From a virus: a stretch of DNA of 64,000 nt. Both the position numbers and the translations under genes were made by a program. The DNA lies in IMG/VR virus record IMGVR_UViG_3300006802_000073, positions 64,001-128,000 of that record. One strand, written 5' to 3'. Of this stretch, positions 11,085 to 23,901 are shown in pieces (position 1 is the stretch's first letter; every line of letters begins with the position of its first letter). The notes beneath the pieces were generated by a model that worked only from the letters and a program-made list of their open reading frames with translations, did no database searches and was not told the origin of the DNA.

Positions 11085-11513
11085 TTACTCCTGTAAATTA
11101 AGTAAATCAACGTTTACATTTGCTTCTTTAAATAATTTTTCTGATAACTCAAAACTTGTTTTCCATCTAGGTGAATCAGAGATTAACGAACATACACGAG
11201 TTATTCCTGATTGTATCACAATAGAGGCGCATCTTGAACATGGCATAAAGGGAAAAGTATAAAGTGTACAATTTTCTAAAGATCTTTGTGCAAAAAGAAT
11301 AGCATTAATCTCTCCATGAATGATAATCTCCAACTTTTCTTCTCTATTATTATAACGAGAAGAATGATCATGAACTGCTCGTGGAAATCCGTTATAACCA
11401 GTTGAAACAATTCTACGATTAGAATCTACAATAACAGCACCTACTTTTGTAGAAGGATCTTTAGACCATGAAGAAATTTCTTTTGCTAATTTCAAAAATC
11501 TTTCATCCCACAT
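11085..11513 (-). CDS. cd: dCMP deaminase
   Basis: SKDPSTKVGAVIV, TGYNGFP, HGEINA, PCSRC. Confidence 0.92.
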   Translation of the reverse strand: MWDERFLKLAKEISSWSKDPSTKVGAVIVDSNRRIVSTGYNGFPRAVHDHSSRYNNREEKLEIIIHGEINAILFAQRSLENCTLYTFPFMPCSRCASIVIQSGITRVCSLISDSPRWKTSFELSEKLFKEANVNVDLLNLQE

Positions 11514-11515
11514 AT

Positions 11516-11860
11516 TTACCCTCTACGCATTCTAGAAATTTCTTTAGCTTCATCAGTTGAAAAAATAGGTACAGCATTACTTTTATGCAATGTACCAATT
11601 CCAATCATAGCATCACCGGTATAGATGGGAATTGGTTTTTTAAATGTATCACCGTTAGATGATGTTATCGAAGGCAAAGATTTATAAACAGATGCGTCTG
11701 TACGAATAATAGGAGATGGTTGTACTTTCAATGGAGTGAAACTTGATCTCCTTTTTTCGATAGTGCCACCAATAGTTTGTTGAGATTTAATCCAACGGTC
11801 TTTTTGCTTTTGTTTCTGTTTACGTGTAAGTTTAGAACTCTGATTAGTATAGATCAACAT
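11516..11860 (-). CDS. conserved phage hypothetical protein
   Basis: C-terminal YTGDAMIGIGTLHKSNAVPIF...ISRMRR typical of T4-superfamily small proteins. Confidence 0.65.
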   Translation of the reverse strand: MLIYTNQSSKLTRKQKQKQKDRWIKSQQTIGGTIEKRRSSFTPLKVQPSPIIRTDASVYKSLPSITSSNGDTFKKPIPIYTGDAMIGIGTLHKSNAVPIFSTDEAKEISRMRRG

Positions 11861-11863
11861 ATA

Positions 11864-12070
11864 TCACCAATATCCATCACCAGCAGATGCAACATATTGA
11901 TAAACCTTCACAGGATTTTCTTCCCATGCTTCAGCTGGTGTTTTACCTAAAAAATGAGAATTTTTTCTTTGCCACCATTCTTCAACATTTCTATCTCCAA
12001 GAAGAGCAACTAAATACGCATTGGTTTCACGCAACATTCTTTTCTTTTCAAGCTTATCTCGATCTAACAT
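11864..12070 (-). CDS. stand-alone MbcA/ParS/Xre antitoxin-like C-terminal domain
   Basis: LLGDRNVEEWWQRKNSHFLGKTPAE...VYQYV fits W-x3-N-x2-(L/F)-GxTP pattern. Confidence 0.55.
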   Translation of the reverse strand: MLDRDKLEKKRMLRETNAYLVALLGDRNVEEWWQRKNSHFLGKTPAEAWEENPVKVYQYVASAGDGYW

Positions 12071-12080
12071 AATGATCTCC

Positions 12081-12088
12081 TATAAATA
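12081..12088 (+). promoter_or_regulatory. T4-type late promoter for plus-strand HNH gene
   Basis: TATAAATA 44 nt upstream of ATG 12133. Confidence 0.7.
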
Positions 12089-12090
12089 CA

Positions 12091-12119
12091 ATTATAATAA
12101 AATAATTTGTTTATGTCAA
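12091..12119 (-). promoter_or_regulatory. sigma70-type early promoter (17-bp spacer)
   Basis: TTGACA-N17-TATAAT. Confidence 0.8.
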
Positions 12120-12132
12120 GTGGAATTTATAT

Positions 12133-12405
12133 ATGAAAAAGGAACGTATAACTAAAAATTTACGTAGAATGGTTATAGAGCGTGATGGACAAAGATGTGT
12201 CTTTTGTGGAGTTGATTTAGAGATCAATGAGATACAATTGGATCATGTTATACCGGAAAGCCAAGGAGGATCAACATCGTTTGGTAATCTTCAAGTAACA
12301 TGTAAAAAATGTAATACAGAAAAAGGTGTTCTAACTGAAGAACAGTTTCTTAACAAATTAAGAACACGAGCAATTAATATTCTCAATCGTATTGGTTATA
12401 CTTAA
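12133..12405 (+). CDS. small HNH endonuclease
   Basis: RDGQRCVFCG...LDHVIPESQGG...NLQVTCKKCN. Confidence 0.9.
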   Translation: MKKERITKNLRRMVIERDGQRCVFCGVDLEINEIQLDHVIPESQGGSTSFGNLQVTCKKCNTEKGVLTEEQFLNKLRTRAINILNRIGYT

Positions 12406-12407
12406 AT

Positions 12408-12719
12408 CTAAGTATGCTCTATAATCTTAATACCAGCAGCTTTAAGCGCACTCTGACAGATTAGACATGGTTTAGCTAACATTGGATTCCCCTTTTTATC
12501 CCATCGACTCACAAAAATTTTATATGCTCTATGTAATTGTTTACACCGTACTATAGAATGAATCTCTGCATGTAGAAACATCTTTTCATGTAGACCAACT
12601 TCATTAGCATATTTTGCTTGCATTGGATGTGTCTTAAGGTATTGGTTTTTGCCTACTGACAACACTCTACCACGTTTATCATAAATTATAGCAGTGATAT
12701 TTTGCTTAGTTTTCGACAT
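12408..12719 (-). CDS. cytidine-deaminase-superfamily Zn protein
   Basis: HAEIH...AKPCLIC. Confidence 0.75.
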   Translation of the reverse strand: MSKTKQNITAIIYDKRGRVLSVGKNQYLKTHPMQAKYANEVGLHEKMFLHAEIHSIVRCKQLHRAYKIFVSRWDKKGNPMLAKPCLICQSALKAAGIKIIEHT

Positions 12720-12855
12720 TCTTTTTCAACGACCTTTCCTTAATCAATGCAATGACTGCAAAAACGCACGAAAGAAGAAAATAATTCGTGTTACCTGTTG
12801 CTAGAAATGTAAGTGTAAGAATTATAATGATAGTATAAAGAATGATAAGCCCCAT
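12706..12855 (-). CDS. 49-aa two-TM membrane peptide (not in ORF track)
   Basis: MGLIILYTIIIILTLTFLATGNTNYFLLSCVFAVIALIKERS...; AGGAG RBS. Confidence 0.5.
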   Translation of the reverse strand: MGLIILYTIIIILTLTFLATGNTNYFLLSCVFAVIALIKERSLKKNVEN

Positions 12856-12858
12856 GAA

Positions 12859-13119
12859 TTAACTCCTTTCAGGAAAAAGTGTATCAAACACATATTGTGG
12901 TCCATATGTACTGAAGATTTTTGCCATTTCACTACCCTTATACGACCAAATTCCACAGTTCAATCCATCAGCAAGAAACCCCCAACTATGACTAACCTTA
13001 TCAGGATCATCTTCTACATTAGGGGGAAACCCTAAGATATTTTCAATCTCATCTGCACTATAACCTCTAATAGTGCCAGTACGATATGGGCCAGTGATAT
13101 TTACGGGCATAATATTCAT
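12859..13119 (-). CDS. hypothetical early protein
   Basis: AAGGAG RBS, directly after promoter 13153-13180. Confidence 0.7.
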   Translation of the reverse strand: MNIMPVNITGPYRTGTIRGYSADEIENILGFPPNVEDDPDKVSHSWGFLADGLNCGIWSYKGSEMAKIFSTYGPQYVFDTLFPERS

Positions 13120-13152
13120 TGTCTAGCTCCTTGTCATCAACAGTATACCGTC

Positions 13153-13180
13153 ATTATACAGAAATCTAACTAAATGTCAA
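13153..13180 (-). promoter_or_regulatory. sigma70-type early promoter (16-bp spacer class)
   Basis: TTGACA-TTTAGTTAGATTTCTG-TATAAT; promoter and leader nearly duplicated at ~14495-14550. Confidence 0.85.
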
Positions 13181-13189
13181 GCAGAATTT

Positions 13190-13315
13190 TTACCCAGACA
13201 CAGACCTAGACCTAGACCTAGACCTAGACCAAGACCCAGACACAGACCTAGACCCAGACCTAGACCTAGACTCAGACCTAGACCTAGAGTATTTTTGTAA
13301 TCTAGAACGAATCAT
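13190..13315 (-). CDS. 41-aa Ser-X (RS-like) repeat microprotein (not in ORF track)
   Basis: MIRSRLQKYSRSRSESRSRSGSRSVSGSWSRSRSRSRSVSG*; ATG overlaps TGA of the upstream Sm-like gene; TAA immediately after the last repeat. Confidence 0.65.
   Translation of the reverse strand: MIRSRLQKYSRSRSESRSRSGSRSVSGSWSRSRSRSRSVSG
13193..13288 (-). repeat. tandem array of 16 hexamers TCT-NNG
   Basis: TCT invariant; second triplet AGG (9x), GGG (3x), GTG (2x), GAG, TGG. Confidence 0.95.
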
Positions 13316-13575
13316 TTTAGAATACCAAAACTTTCAATAGTTGAAATTTGCACATACCAGTCATTGGGTAATTTTTGTGCATCTCTCCAATTCTTTTCAG
13401 AAAAAGAACCGGTTTCGTAAACGATTGCTGCATCTTCTAATAGAACACAAGAATCGTTCACACCTACGAGTTTGCCTGTGTAGATATAATTCATACAGAA
13501 TAATGTTACACGCTCACCCATTAGCTTAACAAGACCTTCGCCTGCAACTTCAGTCACATTTACAATCTTTTTCAT
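13312..13575 (-). CDS. Sm/LSm-fold protein
   Basis: Sm1-like LMGERVTLFCMNYIYTGKLVGVNDSCVLLEDA and Sm2-like WYVQISTIESF; AGGAG RBS. Confidence 0.65.
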   Translation of the reverse strand: MKKIVNVTEVAGEGLVKLMGERVTLFCMNYIYTGKLVGVNDSCVLLEDAAIVYETGSFSEKNWRDAQKLPNDWYVQISTIESFGILK

Positions 13576-13590
13576 AATATATCTCCTAAA

Positions 13591-13794
13591 TTAATATCGA
13601 GTACCAAACCGCCTATTATAAGCAGAATAAAAATTAATAATAAAGTCCTCTACATCAGAGGTTTTTAGATCGGATGTATTGGTCATCCAATCCATTCTCC
13701 CCAAAAAGAATGCATAAGCTGACCTCGGTCCACCACCAGGACCATCATGTATAATCTGCAAATAATCCAGTGTCTGATCATCAAACTCAATCAT
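13591..13794 (-). CDS. hypothetical protein
   Basis: ORF in tightly packed early cluster, GGAG RBS. Confidence 0.6.
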   Translation of the reverse strand: MIEFDDQTLDYLQIIHDGPGGGPRSAYAFFLGRMDWMTNTSDLKTSDVEDFIINFYSAYNRRFGTRY

Positions 13795-13964
13795 TATTGA
13801 TTCTCCAATATATCGGCAGTATAATCACCGTAAAGATAACTCAAAGTTTTCCAGACTGAATCCTTGACAGAATTATATTCTCGATGATTAGTGTAGATCC
13901 ACTTGAAGAACGCATCGTCACCTCGTTCCTCTGCATACTTTTCTGCACGAATCAAAAAGTCCAT
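13794..13964 (-). CDS. 56-aa hypothetical protein (not in ORF track)
   Basis: MDFLIRAEKYAEERGDDAFFKWIY...; TAATG overlap with next gene. Confidence 0.55.
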   Translation of the reverse strand: MDFLIRAEKYAEERGDDAFFKWIYTNHREYNSVKDSVWKTLSYLYGDYTADILENQ

Positions 13965-13966
13965 TA

Positions 13967-14200
13967 TTAGATAGCCCCCTTAAGAATTTTCTCAACCAAC
14001 TTTTGCTCTATTTCTTGAGCAGACTTGAGCATGCTCTCAATCAACTCTTTCTGATTCTTCTTAGACAGCTTAGGTAAAAGATGAATAATGACGCTTTCCA
14101 GATATCCTGCCTCAAACCCATATGATTTGTAATACCTACTAGCAGAATCGCTAAAACATTTAAGAACATTATTCAACGTTTCTTGATTTTCAGTGTACAT
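13967..14200 (-). CDS. hypothetical early protein
   Basis: GAGGAG RBS after promoter 14231. Confidence 0.7.
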   Translation of the reverse strand: MYTENQETLNNVLKCFSDSASRYYKSYGFEAGYLESVIIHLLPKLSKKNQKELIESMLKSAQEIEQKLVEKILKGAI

Positions 14201-14230
14201 TCAGAACTCCTCATCAACGATTCAGACTTA

Positions 14231-14258
14231 ATTATACATGAATCTAACTAAATGTCAA
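14231..14258 (-). promoter_or_regulatory. sigma70-type early promoter (16-bp spacer class)
   Basis: TTGACA-TTTAGTTAGATTCATG-TATAAT. Confidence 0.85.
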
Positions 14259-14279
14259 GCGTTTTTTGCATCAGCTAAC

Positions 14280-14486
14280 TCATTGATTTTCCGAAGTAAT
14301 TTCAGTTTCATCAATGAGAACACGCACTGTGGGTTCGCTCCTCCAACGTAATTGGACGGGGTTGTCTAAGTTAACAGTATATTGTACCTTGCCACCATAT
14401 TTTACACGGCTTGACTCAATGACACCAGAAACCATTACACCCAGATAATTGGCAGTAATGTGCTTACCATCTTTAATCCAGCCCAT
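14280..14486 (-). CDS. small beta-rich hypothetical protein
   Basis: own promoter and AAGGA RBS. Confidence 0.7.
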   Translation of the reverse strand: MGWIKDGKHITANYLGVMVSGVIESSRVKYGGKVQYTVNLDNPVQLRWRSEPTVRVLIDETEITSENQ

Positions 14487-14518
14487 TTACTTTTCCTTGT
14501 CATCAACAGTATACCGTT

Positions 14519-14546
14519 ATTATACATGGATCTAACTATCTGTCAA
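14519..14546 (-). promoter_or_regulatory. sigma70-type early promoter (16-bp spacer class)
   Basis: TTGACA-GATAGTTAGATCCATG-TATAAT. Confidence 0.85.
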
Positions 14547-19594: not shown

Positions 19595-19672
19595 TGGCAC
19601 GGCTGGAGGGACTCGAACCCCCGACCCCGAGCTTAGAAGGCTCGTGCTACTTTCCAACTGAGCTACAGCCGT
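19595..19672 (-). tRNA. tRNA-Arg(UCU)
   Basis: cloverleaf; CGAGC-CTTCTAA-GCTCG anticodon arm, TTCGAGT T-loop, encoded CCA. Confidence 0.9.
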
Positions 19673-19683
19673 ATTATATCCAA

Positions 19684-19712
19684 ATAGTAACATATTTTGA
19701 CGGTGGTGTCAA
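19684..19712 (-). promoter_or_regulatory. sigma70-type promoter for tRNA-Arg
   Basis: TTGACA-N17-TACTAT. Confidence 0.65.
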
Positions 19713-19719
19713 GAAATTT

Positions 19720-20481
19720 TTAAACTTTTCTTTCTATATCTTCTTCTATACAATCTTCACCAAATTGAATTTCTATAACTTTAAGTGGAATATCTTGTGA
19801 TGTATTACGAAGTTTATGCCATGTCCCCACCGCAATATTAATAAAAGAATGTGGATAAAGATATACAGATTTAAAATTATTTTCTGTCTCTAAATCTACA
19901 CAACCAACACCTGAAACAATATGCCAATATTCACTACGTTTAAAATGCCTTTGCATAGATAGTGAACATTGAGGATTCACTACTAATTCTTTTGTCTTGG
20001 TTCCTGGCTGAGAATCTAATACACGATAATAACCCCAATCTCTAAATGTTTTTGGATTTTTCCATTCTTCTAGAATCCAGCTCGAGGAATTTCGTTTGTT
20101 TTCTCCTCCAACTCCAAAAACAAATTCTAAGTTATTATCCTGTATATCCATTTCCGGAATATTATCTTTTGTACGATCTCCTCCATTTACAAAAATGATT
20201 TTATCTTGTGGATAAGATTGTCTTACCATATGAATTACATTTTTCGCTGAGTTATCAGAATCATCAAATCCAATAACATAACCGGTACAACTTAAACCTT
20301 TAAGAACTGCCTGTCGTTCTAAAAACGGCATAAAAGAACGACCTTTTTTTCTAGTTAACCAAGCATCAGAATTTAAACCGATGATTAATCTGTCACCTAG
20401 TTGTCTTGCAGCTTCAAGATATTTTATATGACCAGAATGTAAAGGATCAAATCCACCAGTTGCAATTACAATAGTATTCAT
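19720..20481 (-). CDS. cytidylyltransferase-like domain fused to cupin (type II PMI-like)
   Basis: TGGFDPLHSGH, NGGDR; RDWGYYRVL, LSMQRHFKRSEYW, IEIQFGEDCIEEDIER. Confidence 0.85.
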   Translation of the reverse strand: MNTIVIATGGFDPLHSGHIKYLEAARQLGDRLIIGLNSDAWLTRKKGRSFMPFLERQAVLKGLSCTGYVIGFDDSDNSAKNVIHMVRQSYPQDKIIFVNGGDRTKDNIPEMDIQDNNLEFVFGVGGENKRNSSSWILEEWKNPKTFRDWGYYRVLDSQPGTKTKELVVNPQCSLSMQRHFKRSEYWHIVSGVGCVDLETENNFKSVYLYPHSFINIAVGTWHKLRNTSQDIPLKVIEIQFGEDCIEEDIERKV

Positions 20482-20482
20482 A

Positions 20483-20767
20483 CTAAGATCCTTTCTTCTT
20501 TTTTGTTATTTTTTTAGATGCTTGTTTTCTTTTAATTACAGGTTTCTTAGTTTCTACAGGTAGTACAGGTTTAATGATTGGATGTAGTTGGTTTTTAATT
20601 TGAGTTTCTACGTTAGCGATTTCTTGTACTGAAATTTTATTTTTAAACAGTAAAAAGTGATATTTTACTTTCATTAAACGTAAATATTGAATCTCCTCAA
20701 TCATTTCTTCTAATGTAAGAGAGAACCCATAATCATCAGTCCATAAGATTTCTTTATTTTTCTTCAT
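20483..20767 (-). CDS. hypothetical protein
   Basis: ORF overlapping upstream gene. Confidence 0.5.
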   Translation of the reverse strand: MKKNKEILWTDDYGFSLTLEEMIEEIQYLRLMKVKYHFLLFKNKISVQEIANVETQIKNQLHPIIKPVLPVETKKPVIKRKQASKKITKKKKGS

Positions 20768-20939
20768 CGTTAATTAAACACTCTTCTGTTGATAATATAT
20801 CTTGATACTCGTTTTTTAGTATTTGTTCTTCATATGTTGTTTCTTTTTTGCGAAAGATTCTATCATAATTGTTTCTATATGCATCAGTTACTGTTTTTGT
20901 TTTTATTTCATCGCCAGTTATATCATTTTTTGTTGCCAT
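20754..20939 (-). CDS. conserved small phage protein (start MATKNDITGD)
   Basis: NDITGDEIKTK...YRNNYDRIF; the longer track ORF overlaps tRNA-Leu. Confidence 0.65.
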   Translation of the reverse strand: MATKNDITGDEIKTKTVTDAYRNNYDRIFRKKETTYEEQILKNEYQDILSTEECLINDEEK

Positions 20940-20957
20940 ATACTGACCTTTTAAATT

Positions 20958-21042
20958 TGGTGCGCGGAGCGGGATTCGAACCCGCAAGGCCTTAAGCCGT
21001 CAGATTTTAAGTCTGATGTGTAAACCGTTCCACCACCCGCGC
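20958..21042 (-). tRNA. tRNA-Leu(UAA)
   Basis: TCAGA-CTTAAAA-TCTGA, long variable arm, TTCGAAT, CCA. Confidence 0.93.
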
Positions 21043-21073
21043 TTGTAAAAAATTATTTATTTTTACCTCTTTT

Positions 21074-21149
21074 TGGTCTCTCTGCCTGGATTTGAACCAG
21101 GACCTCTACGTCCCAAACGTAGAACGCTACCGGATTACGCCACAGAGAG
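21074..21149 (-). tRNA. tRNA-Pro(UGG)
   Basis: CTACG-TTTGGGA-CGTAG, TTCAAAT, CCA. Confidence 0.92.
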
Positions 21150-21167
21150 TTTTCTGAGTTATCGAGT

Positions 21168-21428
21168 ATAAGTGCTTCTTTCCCGCGGCGGTAACTATAG
21201 CGCATCAGAAACCGCGTAGTCGCAATCCCATCACGCACGCCCCATCCGCTTCACGACCGGGAAAGATTTTCGCATTGCCAGCGTCAGTTAGGTTGGACTG
21301 CGGTTTTCACCGGAGCAGATTCTCCATTCCCATTACTAGGAGTAGGCACTTGCTCAAACCACCCGTAGGTATCATCCTACTTCTCATCGTGCGGGTCACA
21401 CTAGCTGTTGATTAGACAGCACGTTCGT
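21168..21428 (-). ncRNA. candidate structured ncRNA (~260 nt, family unknown)
   Basis: GC-rich, no credible ORF, many helices including GNRA-capped hairpins and a 9-bp long-range helix (21177-21185 with 21258-21266). Confidence 0.65.
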
Positions 21429-21439
21429 CTATAACAATT

Positions 21440-21562
21440 CTATTTCCAAAAGAATCCTATAATAAATCCTGTTATTTTTAATAACTTTCTTTTAATCTTA
21501 CGTCTAAATAATGATCCTAAATCTCTACTACGTTGAAATTCTTTTCTTAATAAACTATTCAT
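21440..21562 (-). CDS. possible 40-aa basic peptide
   Basis: MNSLLRKEFQRSRDLGSLFRRKIKRKLLKITGFIIGFFWK*; no clear RBS. Confidence 0.3.
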   Translation of the reverse strand: MNSLLRKEFQRSRDLGSLFRRKIKRKLLKITGFIIGFFWK

Positions 21563-21579
21563 ATATTCAAATAAAATTT

Positions 21580-21622
21580 TGGTGGGTTCACTTGGGATTG
21601 AACCAGTGACCCAGTTGAACCT
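21580..21622 (-). pseudogene. tRNA remnant (acceptor stem plus T-loop plus CCA only)
   Basis: GGTTCA...GGTTCAATCC...TGAACCCACCA; no D or anticodon arm. Confidence 0.55.
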
Positions 21623-21629
21623 TCTTTAC

Positions 21630-21706
21630 TGGTGCCCCGTCAGAGACTTGAACTCTGCCTTATCCGTTATGAGCGGATTACTCTCGACCAGGTGAGTTAC
21701 CAGGGC
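21630..21706 (-). tRNA. tRNA-Met or Ile2 (CAU)
   Basis: ATCCG-CTCATAA-CGGAT, TTCAAGT, CCA. Confidence 0.85.
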
Positions 21707-21718
21707 ATTATTTTTAAT

Positions 21719-21755
21719 TCTTGAGTCCGCTGCTTTACCATTAAGCTATAGACCC
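21719..21755 (-). pseudogene. tRNA 5'-half remnant
   Basis: GGGTCTA-TA-GCTT-AATGGTA-AAGC-A-GCGGA-CTCA, then breaks off. Confidence 0.65.
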
Positions 21756-21765
21756 GATAAATCTA

Positions 21766-22101
21766 TTATAACAGAATTTTCTTAGCTTTGTCAAGTGTTA
21801 TCTTTAAGTTATAATCTTTTACAAGATACTTTGCAAAAAGAGTTCTTCTATTAGCAGGGCAATGTTTTAATTGTTCTTTATATGCTTCTACTTCACAATT
21901 AAGTCTATACTTTTCACTAAAAAGATACATAATACCATGAAAAAGAGGATTTTTCCACCATTGCTTAACATGAATCTTTTCATGCTCTAATAGTCCAATG
22001 TCATCTTTATATTCTGGACGAATGAAGATAAAAGGTCCTCTTGTAGTACCAGCAGAATTTTTCAAAACAAATAAATTTGTGTAAAAAACTTTATAAAACA
22101 C
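21766..22101 (-). CDS. HExxH-containing hypothetical protein
   Basis: GPFIFIR...LLEHEKIHVKQW...EVEAY. Confidence 0.65.
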   Translation of the reverse strand: MFYKVFYTNLFVLKNSAGTTRGPFIFIRPEYKDDIGLLEHEKIHVKQWWKNPLFHGIMYLFSEKYRLNCEVEAYKEQLKHCPANRRTLFAKYLVKDYNLKITLDKAKKILL

Positions 22102-22116
22102 AATTAATCTCCTTGT

Positions 22117-22680
22117 TTAAAATAATGTTTCTTCTCTATTAAAAAATGTTGGTGAACGTACAAATTTAAATGTTTCTACAGATTCACTAAATTCAAAAGA
22201 TCTATGCCCCCTCATTGCAGTATGAAATTCTCCTGCTCTATTAGCATGGAATGTTCCAACATCATGAATTTTATTCAATCCTGGAAATCCGTCTTTTCTT
22301 GTTCCATGCAACTTTGCGTTTAAATCTGTTGATGATTTATGAAGAATGGAATCTTGATTATAATGTTTTCCATGTTTTTTCAAAAAAGACAATAACTCCC
22401 CTTTATCATCACCTTTCTTACCGATAACTAGAAAAGAATCTTCATCTACTGCTTTTGCATTTTTGGTGCCATGGTTCTCTATGTATCGACCTTTTACTTT
22501 AATAAAACCATAACCTGCTGTTTTTATATGATTTTCCAATTCTTTGTTATTAGATTGATTTTCTTTAGAAGTATTCTCACCTCTATGTGCAGTTATCATA
22601 CCTATATTTCTGTTTTTAACATGAGAATTTACACGAGATAAACTCGATTCATGTAAAAGATCTGCTACTTTTTTAGTCAT
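22117..22680 (-). CDS. conserved T4-superfamily hypothetical protein
   Basis: ESSLSRV...IGMITAHRG...GRYIEN...YNQDSIL. Confidence 0.7.
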   Translation of the reverse strand: MTKKVADLLHESSLSRVNSHVKNRNIGMITAHRGENTSKENQSNNKELENHIKTAGYGFIKVKGRYIENHGTKNAKAVDEDSFLVIGKKGDDKGELLSFLKKHGKHYNQDSILHKSSTDLNAKLHGTRKDGFPGLNKIHDVGTFHANRAGEFHTAMRGHRSFEFSESVETFKFVRSPTFFNREETLF

Positions 22681-22696
22681 TTAAATTCCTTTAAAA

Positions 22697-22771
22697 TGGT
22701 GCTCCCAGACCGACTTGCACGATCCTCACTGGGTTACAAATCCAGGTCAGCGCTTTCTCTGAGTTAGGAGC
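22697..22771 (-). tRNA. atypical tRNA-Thr(UGU)
   Basis: GCTCCTA/TGGGAGC acceptor, loop TTTGTAA, CCA; non-canonical D-loop and T-loop (TGCAAGT). Confidence 0.65.
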
Positions 22772-22778
22772 TATATAT

Positions 22779-23204
22779 CTATATATATTCGTAATTAACT
22801 GTTGTCTCATTATCTTTTAATAAAATAGCACCATTTCTTAAATGAAATCTCTTCGCCAGCTCAGTTTTTGGACTCAAAGTTACAAATCTATTCACCGATG
22901 GAAATTGTTCATGTATAAAGTTTATAGTTTCAAATAATAATTTCCTCGCAGCTCCCGGTACATAACTCCATATAGTATAAAATACTGCTGTAGTTTCTTC
23001 TTCATCCGCCTCTAATTCTTCTACAGTCACAGGAACATGATTCAATAAACTCACACATACTATAGCAGATGGGGTTTCTTCACCCAATACACATACAAAT
23101 CTATGTTTACTTACTCTAAAATCTTTTGAAATTTCTGGGCGAACAGGATCATCTTTTATATATTCCATAAAAGGGTTTTCTATATTTTTAATAATAGTAA
23201 TCAT
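22779..23204 (-). CDS. GNAT-like hypothetical protein
   Basis: AVFYTIWSY..GAARKLL...FVTLSP...AKRFHLRNGA. Confidence 0.6.
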   Translation of the reverse strand: MITIIKNIENPFMEYIKDDPVRPEISKDFRVSKHRFVCVLGEETPSAIVCVSLLNHVPVTVEELEADEEETTAVFYTIWSYVPGAARKLLFETINFIHEQFPSVNRFVTLSPKTELAKRFHLRNGAILLKDNETTVNYEYI

Positions 23205-23209
23205 ACTAT

Positions 23210-23217
23210 TATTTATA
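23210..23217 (-). promoter_or_regulatory. T4-type late promoter (transcript would be near-leaderless)
   Basis: TATAAATA 5 nt before ATG 23204. Confidence 0.55.
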
Positions 23218-23221
23218 TTTT

Positions 23222-23788
23222 TTACGTACTTTTTTGTTTAGATCTTGAATAATCTGGTAAAAAATCTGAAAGAAATTTCATCTGATCATGCAATATACTT
23301 CTATTCTGTAATATTAATCCTTCAGCTCTATCAGGAGTATATGGTATATATAATAATTGCATATTGCATTCTTCTAATAACATATCATCTTTATAAGAAT
23401 TGCATCGAGTACATGCAGTAACACAATTTGTCCAAGTATTAAGTCCACCTCTTGAAACCGGAACAATATGATCTTTTGTTAATCTGTTATCAGAATACTT
23501 TTTTCCGCAATAAGCACACAGATAAAGATCTCTTCTAAAAAGATTTCTATTACTTAATGTAGGAGTTCTACCTTTATAATAAAAATTAGTTTTAAGTGCA
23601 ATGATAGATGATATCTCAATTTTTGATTGAAGACCTGTTATTCTAGAAATTCCACCTCTAAACATAAAGTCTTTATCACCATATTCCCATGCAATCAAAC
23701 CTTTACATTTTAAAATAACTGCATCTTGCCATGGTAACCATGTATGAGGATATCCTCCTTTATTCAAAGCTAAAATGAGATTTTGCAT
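23222..23788 (-). CDS. HNH endonuclease (McrA-like)
   Basis: NLFRRDLYLCAYCG...TKDHIVPVSRGG...WTNCVTACTRCN. Confidence 0.9.
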   Translation of the reverse strand: MQNLILALNKGGYPHTWLPWQDAVILKCKGLIAWEYGDKDFMFRGGISRITGLQSKIEISSIIALKTNFYYKGRTPTLSNRNLFRRDLYLCAYCGKKYSDNRLTKDHIVPVSRGGLNTWTNCVTACTRCNSYKDDMLLEECNMQLLYIPYTPDRAEGLILQNRSILHDQMKFLSDFLPDYSRSKQKST

Positions 23789-23806
23789 CTTCTTTTTCTA
23801 TAAAAT

Positions 23807-23901
23807 TGGTCCTCCCAGTAGGATTCGAACCTACGACCTCACGCCTATCTAGCGCTAATACTGGGTATAAACCAGCTGCTCTACCGCTGAGCTATAGGAG
23901 G
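23807..23901 (-). tRNA. tRNA-Ile(UAU) with extra arm
   Basis: GCTGG-TTTATAC-CCAGT, 25-nt variable region, TTCGAAT, CCA. Confidence 0.8.

Follow-up and report, generated by a model that had tools for sequence, protein, structure and literature searches.

Eukaryotic SmD1, SmD3, SmB and LSm4 are Sm/LSm proteins with Arg-rich low-complexity tails, and Gly-rich repeat tails are found in the Hfq of Acinetobacter. Dipeptide repeats are also known from the staphylococcal Clf/Sdr proteins, in which acidic Ser-Asp repeats lie inside large secreted adhesins and form glycosylated stalks. Bacterial Hfq has a disordered C-terminal domain on an Sm-type core (PMC5606850). In the GoF/MotB.1/Frd.2 family of phage T4, a barrel forms the N-terminal half of a two-domain protein (MotB.1, 13.8 kDa; PMC12152347). 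The present analysis concerns a two-gene locus in a stretch of 64,000 nucleotides (nt), hereafter the window, comprising positions 64,001 to 128,000 of the IMG/VR virus record IMGVR_UViG_3300006802_000073. A gene for an acidic, Sm-like protein of 87 amino acids (aa) is followed by an unannotated, overlapping open reading frame (ORF) for a basic 41-aa peptide composed of a short leader and a Ser-X dipeptide repeat. As judged by comparison across loci, both are real, selected protein-coding genes travelling together, and the pair recurs in some bacteria as well as in uncultured phages, of which there are thousands with it.

Similar to the tailed eukaryotic Sm/LSm proteins, the module combines a small Sm-fold barrel with a basic, Gly/Arg-rich, disordered dipeptide-repeat segment. 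Unlike in those proteins, the tail is a separate coupled gene that is never fused, the repeat is X-Ser with Trp always present rather than Arg-Gly, and the barrel, predicted to have an Sm fold, is acidic, fails the LSM sequence profile and occurs in phages and bacteria. Hfq likewise offers an Sm-type core, a low-complexity extension tuning nucleic-acid binding and a charge interplay of the two parts (PMC5606850). However, Hfq was a weaker structural match to the module barrel (Z ~7 versus 10 for Sm/LSm) and gave no profile match, and the polarity of the module is reversed, with an acidic core and a basic arm encoded by a separate, hypervariable gene. The T4 GoF/MotB.1/Frd.2 proteins are made early, are predicted to contain an LSm-like beta-barrel and are suspected of acting after transcription (PMC12152347), features to which the module is comparable; the module barrel, in contrast, is a single 87-aa domain without detectable sequence relationship to them, and no repeat-peptide partner has been reported for the T4 family (PMC12152347). 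The earlier note on this DNA had called the peptide RS-like, and SR/RS splicing factors, which take part in RNA biology, do share tracts in which Ser and Arg alternate within a basic, disordered segment. This description was not upheld, as the repeat is better written (Gly/Arg/Trp)-Ser: Arg accounts for ~14% of array residues, Gly and Trp are equally regular, and the peptides are free-standing (20-90 aa), with no RRM or other Pfam domain and no visible kinase context. The Clf/Sdr repeats resemble the peptide in being X-Ser dipeptides derived from short DNA repeats whose length varies between strains, but the module peptide is a basic, free-standing microprotein with an Sm-like partner.

The pair as such was found nowhere in the papers, family libraries and cultured phage records searched, in keeping with the earlier suggestion that the module is undescribed. 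Literature on phage Sm-like and Hfq-like proteins and on dipeptide or hexanucleotide repeats yielded nothing matching the pair, and no paper was found with peptide strings such as SWSGSWS. The 87-aa protein had no Pfam match at E <= 1 and no significant match in PHROGs, NCBIfam or PADLOC, and the 41-aa peptide had no significant match in these four libraries. A tblastn search of 50,697 phage records found neither barrel family in cultured phages, each matching only one Manatee Spring metagenome phage.

The layout reported in the earlier note was confirmed to the base, including the ATGA overlap, the 41-aa ORF, the 16 TCT-NNG hexamers with invariant TCT and G-ending variable triplets, and the immediate stop. 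Within the array, Ser (always TCT) alternates with Arg (AGG, nine times), Gly (GGG, three times), Val (GTG, twice), Glu (GAG, once) and Trp (TGG, once). Tandem Repeats Finder described the array with a period of 6, 14.5 copies and a score of 125, while a period-18 reading scored 145. The three-unit pattern GGTCTNGGTCTNGGTCT, with at most one mismatch, gave 13 matches in the window, all in the array (0.00 expected from 100 shuffles). The complete 149-kb virus record contains a single such array and a single such Sm-like gene. The Sm-like protein has a net charge of -2 and an isoelectric point (pI) of 5.0.

To place the locus in a wider context, 80 viral contigs encoding relatives of the window protein (60-88% identity, GC content 0.32-0.69) were compared. 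Of 81 loci that could be assessed, 78 had a hexamer array at or just past the stop codon of the Sm-like gene, in frame and with a conserved start and leader, so that the adjacency seen in the window extends to homologs. The exceptions were two loci without an array and one with a 13-aa vestige; one further contig ends too early to judge. Contigs terminated within the array in 12 cases, and gene callers missed the micro-ORFs, leaving 0.5-1.1 kb uncalled. The pair was found on contigs from ~35 kb to one of 307 kb, usually amid small early-type genes. No conserved phage gene neighborhood was detected, the commonest neighbor cluster being present in 6 loci; the repeat ORF is thus kept while neighboring genes differ, suggesting that the pair is a self-contained module. 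Fused barrel-peptide forms were not found among the homologs, as all 12 longer ones were N-terminal mis-starts or chimeras.

Family 1, to which the window protein belongs, comprised 3690 homolog clusters at 90% identity, nearly all 85-89 aa and all unnamed. A second family of ~111 aa was homologous to family 1 by hhalign (97%, E 1e-10, 21% identity). A reverse scan with the pattern (GGTCTN)6 returned 118 loci; some were unrelated pure (RS)n, (WS)n or (GS)n tracts, and most arrays of mixed R/G/W composition were positioned behind a family 1 or family 2 barrel gene. The presence of arrays behind both divergent barrel families indicates that the association predates the family split. Two further types of mixed R/G/W-Ser micro-ORF, with leaders M-V-T-K-R-T-K-Y and M-I-K-K-S-I-Y-K, were observed at six loci (L120, L142 and L199; L108, L123 and L157) whose directly upstream genes encode a 528-aa primase-like or an unrelated 112-aa protein and no Sm-like protein. 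On a contig binned as Patescibacteria (L219, ~1855-2000), a tRNA-like sequence, not a repeat ORF, follows the Sm-like gene.

The 87-aa protein is predicted to have an Sm/LSm fold, although membership does not hold at the level of sequence. An AlphaFold2 model based upon alignment A1 (65 homologs) had a predicted local distance difference test score (pLDDT) of 95.2 and a predicted template modeling score (pTM) of 0.82, and agreed with the fold of the Sm/LSm/Hfq superfamily, in which a strongly bent antiparallel beta-sheet of five strands comes after a short helix at the N-terminus. All 17 Foldseek matches in the PDB at E <= 1e-3 were Sm/LSm proteins. VIA-align, which does not depend on Foldseek, aligned the model with yeast SmF (1n9r) at Z 10.0 with a root-mean-square deviation of 1.6 over 64 aa, followed by archaeal SmAP1 (Z 9.9) and, lower, Hfq (Z ~7). 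The two aligners therefore agree with the Sm/LSm fold that the earlier note had read from sequence patterns. The family 2 model (pLDDT 82.7) contained a helix at residues 8-21 and an Sm barrel with Z 9.1 to Lsm. A by-eye check of A1 against the Sm1/Sm2 RNA-pocket motifs (Asn or an aromatic residue in loop 3, Arg-Gly in loop 5) identified G34-x-L36-x-G38-V-N40 as resembling Sm1. A profile search of PDB sequences with the 87-aa protein returned nothing below E 1, and the Hfq and Phage_Hfq profiles matched neither the window protein nor its family members. The best structural match in BFVD (E 3.8e-4) was not of the same family, and all ESM Atlas matches were viral clusters without a name, the weak leads being LSM, Gemin7 and Phage_Hfq (0.80-0.84).

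The microproteins share composition and start signals across the family. Array residues were 45% S, 19% G, 14% R and 14% W, and Trp was present in each of 60 distinct complete peptides examined. All 60 were basic (pI 12, net charge +3 to +17, median +10.5), and all 78 barrels were acidic (pI ~5, median net charge -3 in family 1 and -4 in family 2). A start codon and a conserved basic leader (consensus M-R-G-L-K-Q-K-Y) precede every array in its frame, which makes NGG a codon. Leader residues are kept even though five different codons serve for Arg and four each for Gly and Leu, so that the leader provides an internal control for the NGG rule of the arrays. The family 2 micro-ORFs have another leader, of the type M-N-A-A-V-M-R-x-G-F-D, and leader type tracks barrel family. 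A 4-nt start overlap, ATGA or GTGA, was found at 43 of 77 related loci, and starts lying 9-10 nt away carry an AAGGAG ribosome-binding site. Micro-ORF copy number ranged from 1 to 5. In a close relative of the window phage there are five tandem micro-ORFs, each junction (AGGTGATCAAATG) combining stop, ribosome-binding site and start. In L203 (8255-9197; also L204 and L205), one Sm-like gene is followed by five X-Ser micro-ORFs in tandem (52-75 aa), joined by the constant junction AGGTGATCAAATGAAAATG, and sister contigs with an identical Sm-like protein have only three.

Serine is kept while its codons change. Array totals were 670 TCG, 414 TCT, 174 TCA and 160 AGC, and five changes are required to explain the AGY type on the tree of barrels, with well-supported branches forcing at least two switches from TCN to AGY. 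As to whether codon or amino acid is what is conserved, a question left by the earlier note, it is the amino acid across the family. Alternative frames were rejected because the X-Ser frame alone yields a constant product: the +1 frame product varies by phage (Gly-Leu, Gly-Arg, Gly-Gln/His or Gly-Ala), TCA-type arrays interrupt the antisense Pro-X frame with TGA, and the long antisense ORFs of GC-rich loci were judged spurious. A programmed -1 frameshift at A-AAA-TGA, which could fuse barrel and tail in the window, was rejected as well: other loci do not keep the slippery context (e.g., G-AAA-TGA in L001), and at many gapped loci the micro-ORF has its own ribosome-binding site. The comparative data thus identify the peptide as the selected entity across the family. 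The Sm fold, the adjacent repeat in homologs and the preserved reading frame, the three features on which the earlier note had made its proposal depend, were all found.

Chromosomal copies add a setting in which the repeat is gone. The Sm-like gene was present as a single chromosomal copy in 10 of 120 Nitrospinota species genomes, and the cassette was observed on contigs of metagenome-assembled genomes (L218, L224-L230) of up to 3.36 Mb. In all eight loci examined the Sm-like gene adjoins a divergent XRE/DicA-like helix-turn-helix (HTH) regulator, and in seven of the eight the cassette is followed, in conserved synteny, by convergent DUF971 and ApbC (ApbC/Mrp) genes. The barrel gene overlaps a partner ORF of 49-51 aa which, at the eight loci, has lost the DNA repeat: it draws on every Ser, Gly and Arg codon, with a basic leader and S-W-S-G-type motifs kept. 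Among the four closest copies, the ratio of nonsynonymous to synonymous substitution rates (dN/dS) was 0.09-0.17 at dS 0.6-1.4. These copies, which may represent a domesticated phage module, provide the strongest evidence from sequence comparison that the peptide, not the nucleic acid, is what is kept.

The features of the module in the window are collected in the table below. Within 5 kb of the minus strand there are four promoters matching TTGACA-N16/17-TATAAT perfectly (12/12; 14546-14519, 14258-14231, 13180-13153 and 12119-12091), and this set looks like the early promoter series of T4-type phages. Each of the four (window 12091-14546) precedes a short run of small genes. From gene order, an operon would begin at the promoter at 14258-14231 and have the Sm-like/microprotein pair as its last unit. 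Perfect sigma-70 promoters bracketing the module point to early expression by the host polymerase.

Table. Positions of the Sm-like/microprotein module and its flanking signals in the window.
Feature	Position	Strand	Basis or remark
Sm-like gene, 87 aa, acidic, family 1	13312..13575	minus	ORF list, AlphaFold2 model
AGGAG ribosome-binding site of Sm-like gene	13583..13587	minus	read from sequence; 7 nt before ATG at 13575
ATGA overlap, Sm-like stop within microprotein start	13312..13315	minus	probable translational coupling
Microprotein gene, 41 aa, unannotated: basic leader + (Ser-X)16, net charge +11	13190..13315	minus	
Leader, 9 codons, M-I-R-S-R-L-Q-K-Y, variant of the family consensus M-R-G-L-K-Q-K-Y	13289..13315	minus	
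Array of 16 TCT-NNG hexamers	13193..13288	minus	TAA directly after
Perfect sigma-70-type promoter, TTGACA-N16-TATAAT, 12/12 matches	14231..14258	minus	probable early-operon start
Next perfect sigma-70-type promoter	13153..13180	minus	begins 10 nt past microprotein stop; marks where the module's transcription unit ends

The best explanation of these observations, to which we assign roughly even chances, is a two-gene early phage module whose products act together, with RNA as the most likely target. An early operon of the host-RNA-polymerase type would yield both products. The first gene would supply a small acidic Sm/LSm beta-barrel serving as an oligomeric scaffold or carrier, and the second, translationally coupled, a strongly basic and probably disordered peptide with a Lys/Arg/aromatic leader followed by Ser alternating with Gly, Arg or Trp. 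Such a peptide could be a multivalent cationic, aromatic arm with Ser/Gly spacers that touches nucleic acid, most likely RNA, early in infection. The module would then correspond to an Sm core whose Arg-rich low-complexity tail has been split off, and the hexamer repeat of the phage DNA a by-product of rapid block-wise array turnover rather than a functional nucleic-acid element. The acidic barrels and basic peptides, together with the early-promoter context, favor a two-protein module; RNA handling, ring formation and barrel-peptide binding are inferred parts of this model. A more elaborate version, which we regard as doubtful, is a split ribonucleoprotein-granule-like system in phages and one bacterial lineage. 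Here an acidic Sm-fold ring would carry or release hypervariable sticker-and-spacer peptides (Arg/Trp cation-pi stickers, Ser/Gly spacers). Early in infection these would condense or sequester either RNA or a conserved host protein of RNA binding or defense, and variation at one base per hexamer would continually reshuffle the R/W/G code in an arms race.

Several observations weigh against joint action of the two products on RNA. The LSM profile (PF01423) matched 2 of 65 family 1 members, at E 0.04 only, and no member of family 2; no Sm2 Arg-Gly motif was seen in the by-eye check of A1; and the acidity of the barrel is unusual for an RNA-binding Sm core. Taken together, these results suggest that the barrel may not bind RNA at all. 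Approximately one third of the mixed R/G/W arrays in the reverse scan had no recognizable barrel gene directly upstream. At the level of DNA, hexamer position 1 is variable (1.54 bits) and the other five positions hold 0.17-0.31 bits, both synonymous positions included, while GGG represents 95% of Gly codons and AGG plus CGG 96% of Arg codons in phage arrays. Furthermore, R, G and W succeed one another along arrays at random or with slight over-dispersion (lag-1 identity 0.307 versus 0.330), which leaves room for a nucleotide-level constraint in phages, and differences in array length could in part be assembly artefacts.

The main rival, which we consider unlikely but with a real share of the probability, is a toxin-antidote-like or host-takeover pair, in which the acidic barrel, made first from the shared mRNA, would neutralize, chaperone or deliver an Arg/Trp-rich peptide that is harmful on its own, for example by acting on membranes or coating nucleic acids; an Sm ring handling RNA would have no part in it. 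Type II toxin-antitoxin operons have a similar gene order and 4-nt overlap, the module is within an early operon, and charge complementarity is strict (pI ~5 versus pI 12). Arg/Trp-rich peptides are classic antimicrobial sequences. The absence of sequence-level Sm motifs in the barrel fits this explanation, as does the constant position of the Nitrospinota cassette beside the divergent XRE/DicA-like HTH regulator; however, barrel and peptide match no toxin, antitoxin or defense model in PADLOC/NCBIfam, and the neighboring regulator alone gave a match, to XRE/DicA-like models. With Ser at every second position and ~19% Gly, the peptide would act weakly on membranes; conservation of the barrel (60-88% identity over GC 0.32-0.69) far exceeds that of typical antitoxins; and up to five peptide genes accompany a single barrel gene. 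All of these count against an antidote.

Another alternative is that the repeat works as nucleic acid, with the ORF incidental: (UCUNNG)n RNA could be a periodic ligand of the Sm ring, as the earlier note had proposed, or a 3' hairpin could stabilize or terminate the early transcript. This appears improbable. The window array, which closes the early operon on its 3' side, is predicted to fold as RNA into a quasi-palindromic hairpin of 96 nt (-35.6 kcal/mol, z -4.2). Self-pairing of GGUC through G.U gives TCT-type arrays long hairpins of this kind (z -4.2 to -6.7). A hairpin conserved across the family was rejected, with AGC arrays at z -1.3, 0.0 and +1.2 and one TCA array at z +1.7, values without excess structure. 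No T run (U tract in the RNA) follows the window hairpin. The near-invariance of five of the six hexamer positions, synonymous ones included, and the rare NGG codons of the arrays, which the phage's own genes avoid (GGG ~7% of Gly codons and AGG plus CGG ~7% of Arg codons in the window, AGG 4% and CGG 3%), are in line with a constraint on the nucleic acid. Nevertheless, the constant pentamer differs among phages (GGTCT, GGTCG, GGTCA or GGAGC), the encoded Ser being the one shared feature; start, leader and ribosome-binding site are kept in the sole X-Ser frame; and the Nitrospinota peptide is under purifying selection without a repeat. The nucleotide-level constraint favored earlier is therefore retained in one part only: amino acids are kept across the TCN/AGC switch, in AGC arrays lacking hairpins and in repeat-free Nitrospinota copies, but the strict NGG codon use of phage arrays is real and is explained only in part.

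As a partial explanation, the NGG rule may result from block-wise turnover combined with selection for an R/G/W mix and the TGG codon of Trp. Contig pairs with identical barrel genes and near-identical (mostly identical) flanks differed by blocks of 1 to 21 whole hexamers in 6 of 12 cases. Simple single-unit slippage was rejected, as there is no excess of identical neighboring units. Our working explanation is that the single codon of Trp, TGG, holds positions 2 and 3, and arrays richer in Trp had, as this would predict, fewer non-G third positions (rho -0.35, p 0.005). Adenine mutagenesis of the diversity-generating retroelement (DGR) type was also rejected, since the A of the Ser codon is invariant in TCA and AGC arrays and hexamer position 1 takes all four bases, although no search for a reverse transcriptase or a template repeat was made.

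A translational device has a very low probability. According to this explanation the peptide is functionless, and the terminal run of NGG codons would stall or titrate ribosomes or tRNAs, or Shine-Dalgarno (SD)-like GGU/GGAG words would bind the anti-SD sequence, tuning expression or mRNA decay. It would account for the use of AGG, CGG and GGG, the rarest Arg and Gly codons in the window phage (4%, 3% and 7%), for AGGU or GGAG words within the hexamers and for the presence of a tRNA-Arg(UCU) gene in the phage. Against this, the rule persists in GC-rich phages, where CGG and GGG are common, Ser is conserved over two codon families, Trp is in every peptide and, in Nitrospinota, the peptide genes make use of every synonymous codon. 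A neutral hexanucleotide microsatellite in a 3' untranslated region, with an ORF by chance, would agree with array lengths that vary between otherwise identical contigs and with an ORF that gene callers do not call, but carries a practically negligible probability and is already contradicted by comparative data, namely the repeat kept behind two Sm-like families with ~21% identity, the conserved frame, start and leader, the switch of Ser codon family with the amino acid unchanged, the dN/dS of ~0.1 in non-repeat copies and the 13 pattern matches in the window versus 0 expected.

The module is abundant yet invisible to current annotation: the peptide genes are passed over by gene callers, and assemblies tend to break within them. 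If its products work together, it would be the first Sm-type system in bacterial viruses with a detachable low-complexity arm, and a compact natural model of Arg/Trp/Ser/Gly sequences acting on nucleic acids. It also poses an evolutionary puzzle, with Ser kept over two codon families, yet Gly, Arg and Trp encoded by NGG only and one hypervariable base per hexamer. The non-repetitive Nitrospinota copies offer a stable version of the module for study.

Other genes in the window were examined by sequence alone. Near the module (window 11085-12719) there are two deaminase-type ORFs and a small HNH-like ORF: a 142-aa ORF (11513-11085) looks dCMP-deaminase-like, a related 103-aa ORF (12719-12408) looks cytidine-deaminase-like, and the HNH-like ORF (90 aa, 12133-12405) is on the plus strand. 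ARAGORN identified five tRNA genes on the minus strand in window 19595-23901, with specificities Arg(UCU), Leu(UAA), Pro(UGG), Met(CAU) and Ile(UAU). The tRNA-Arg(UCU) can read AGA and perhaps AGG, the latter being the sole Arg codon of the window array.

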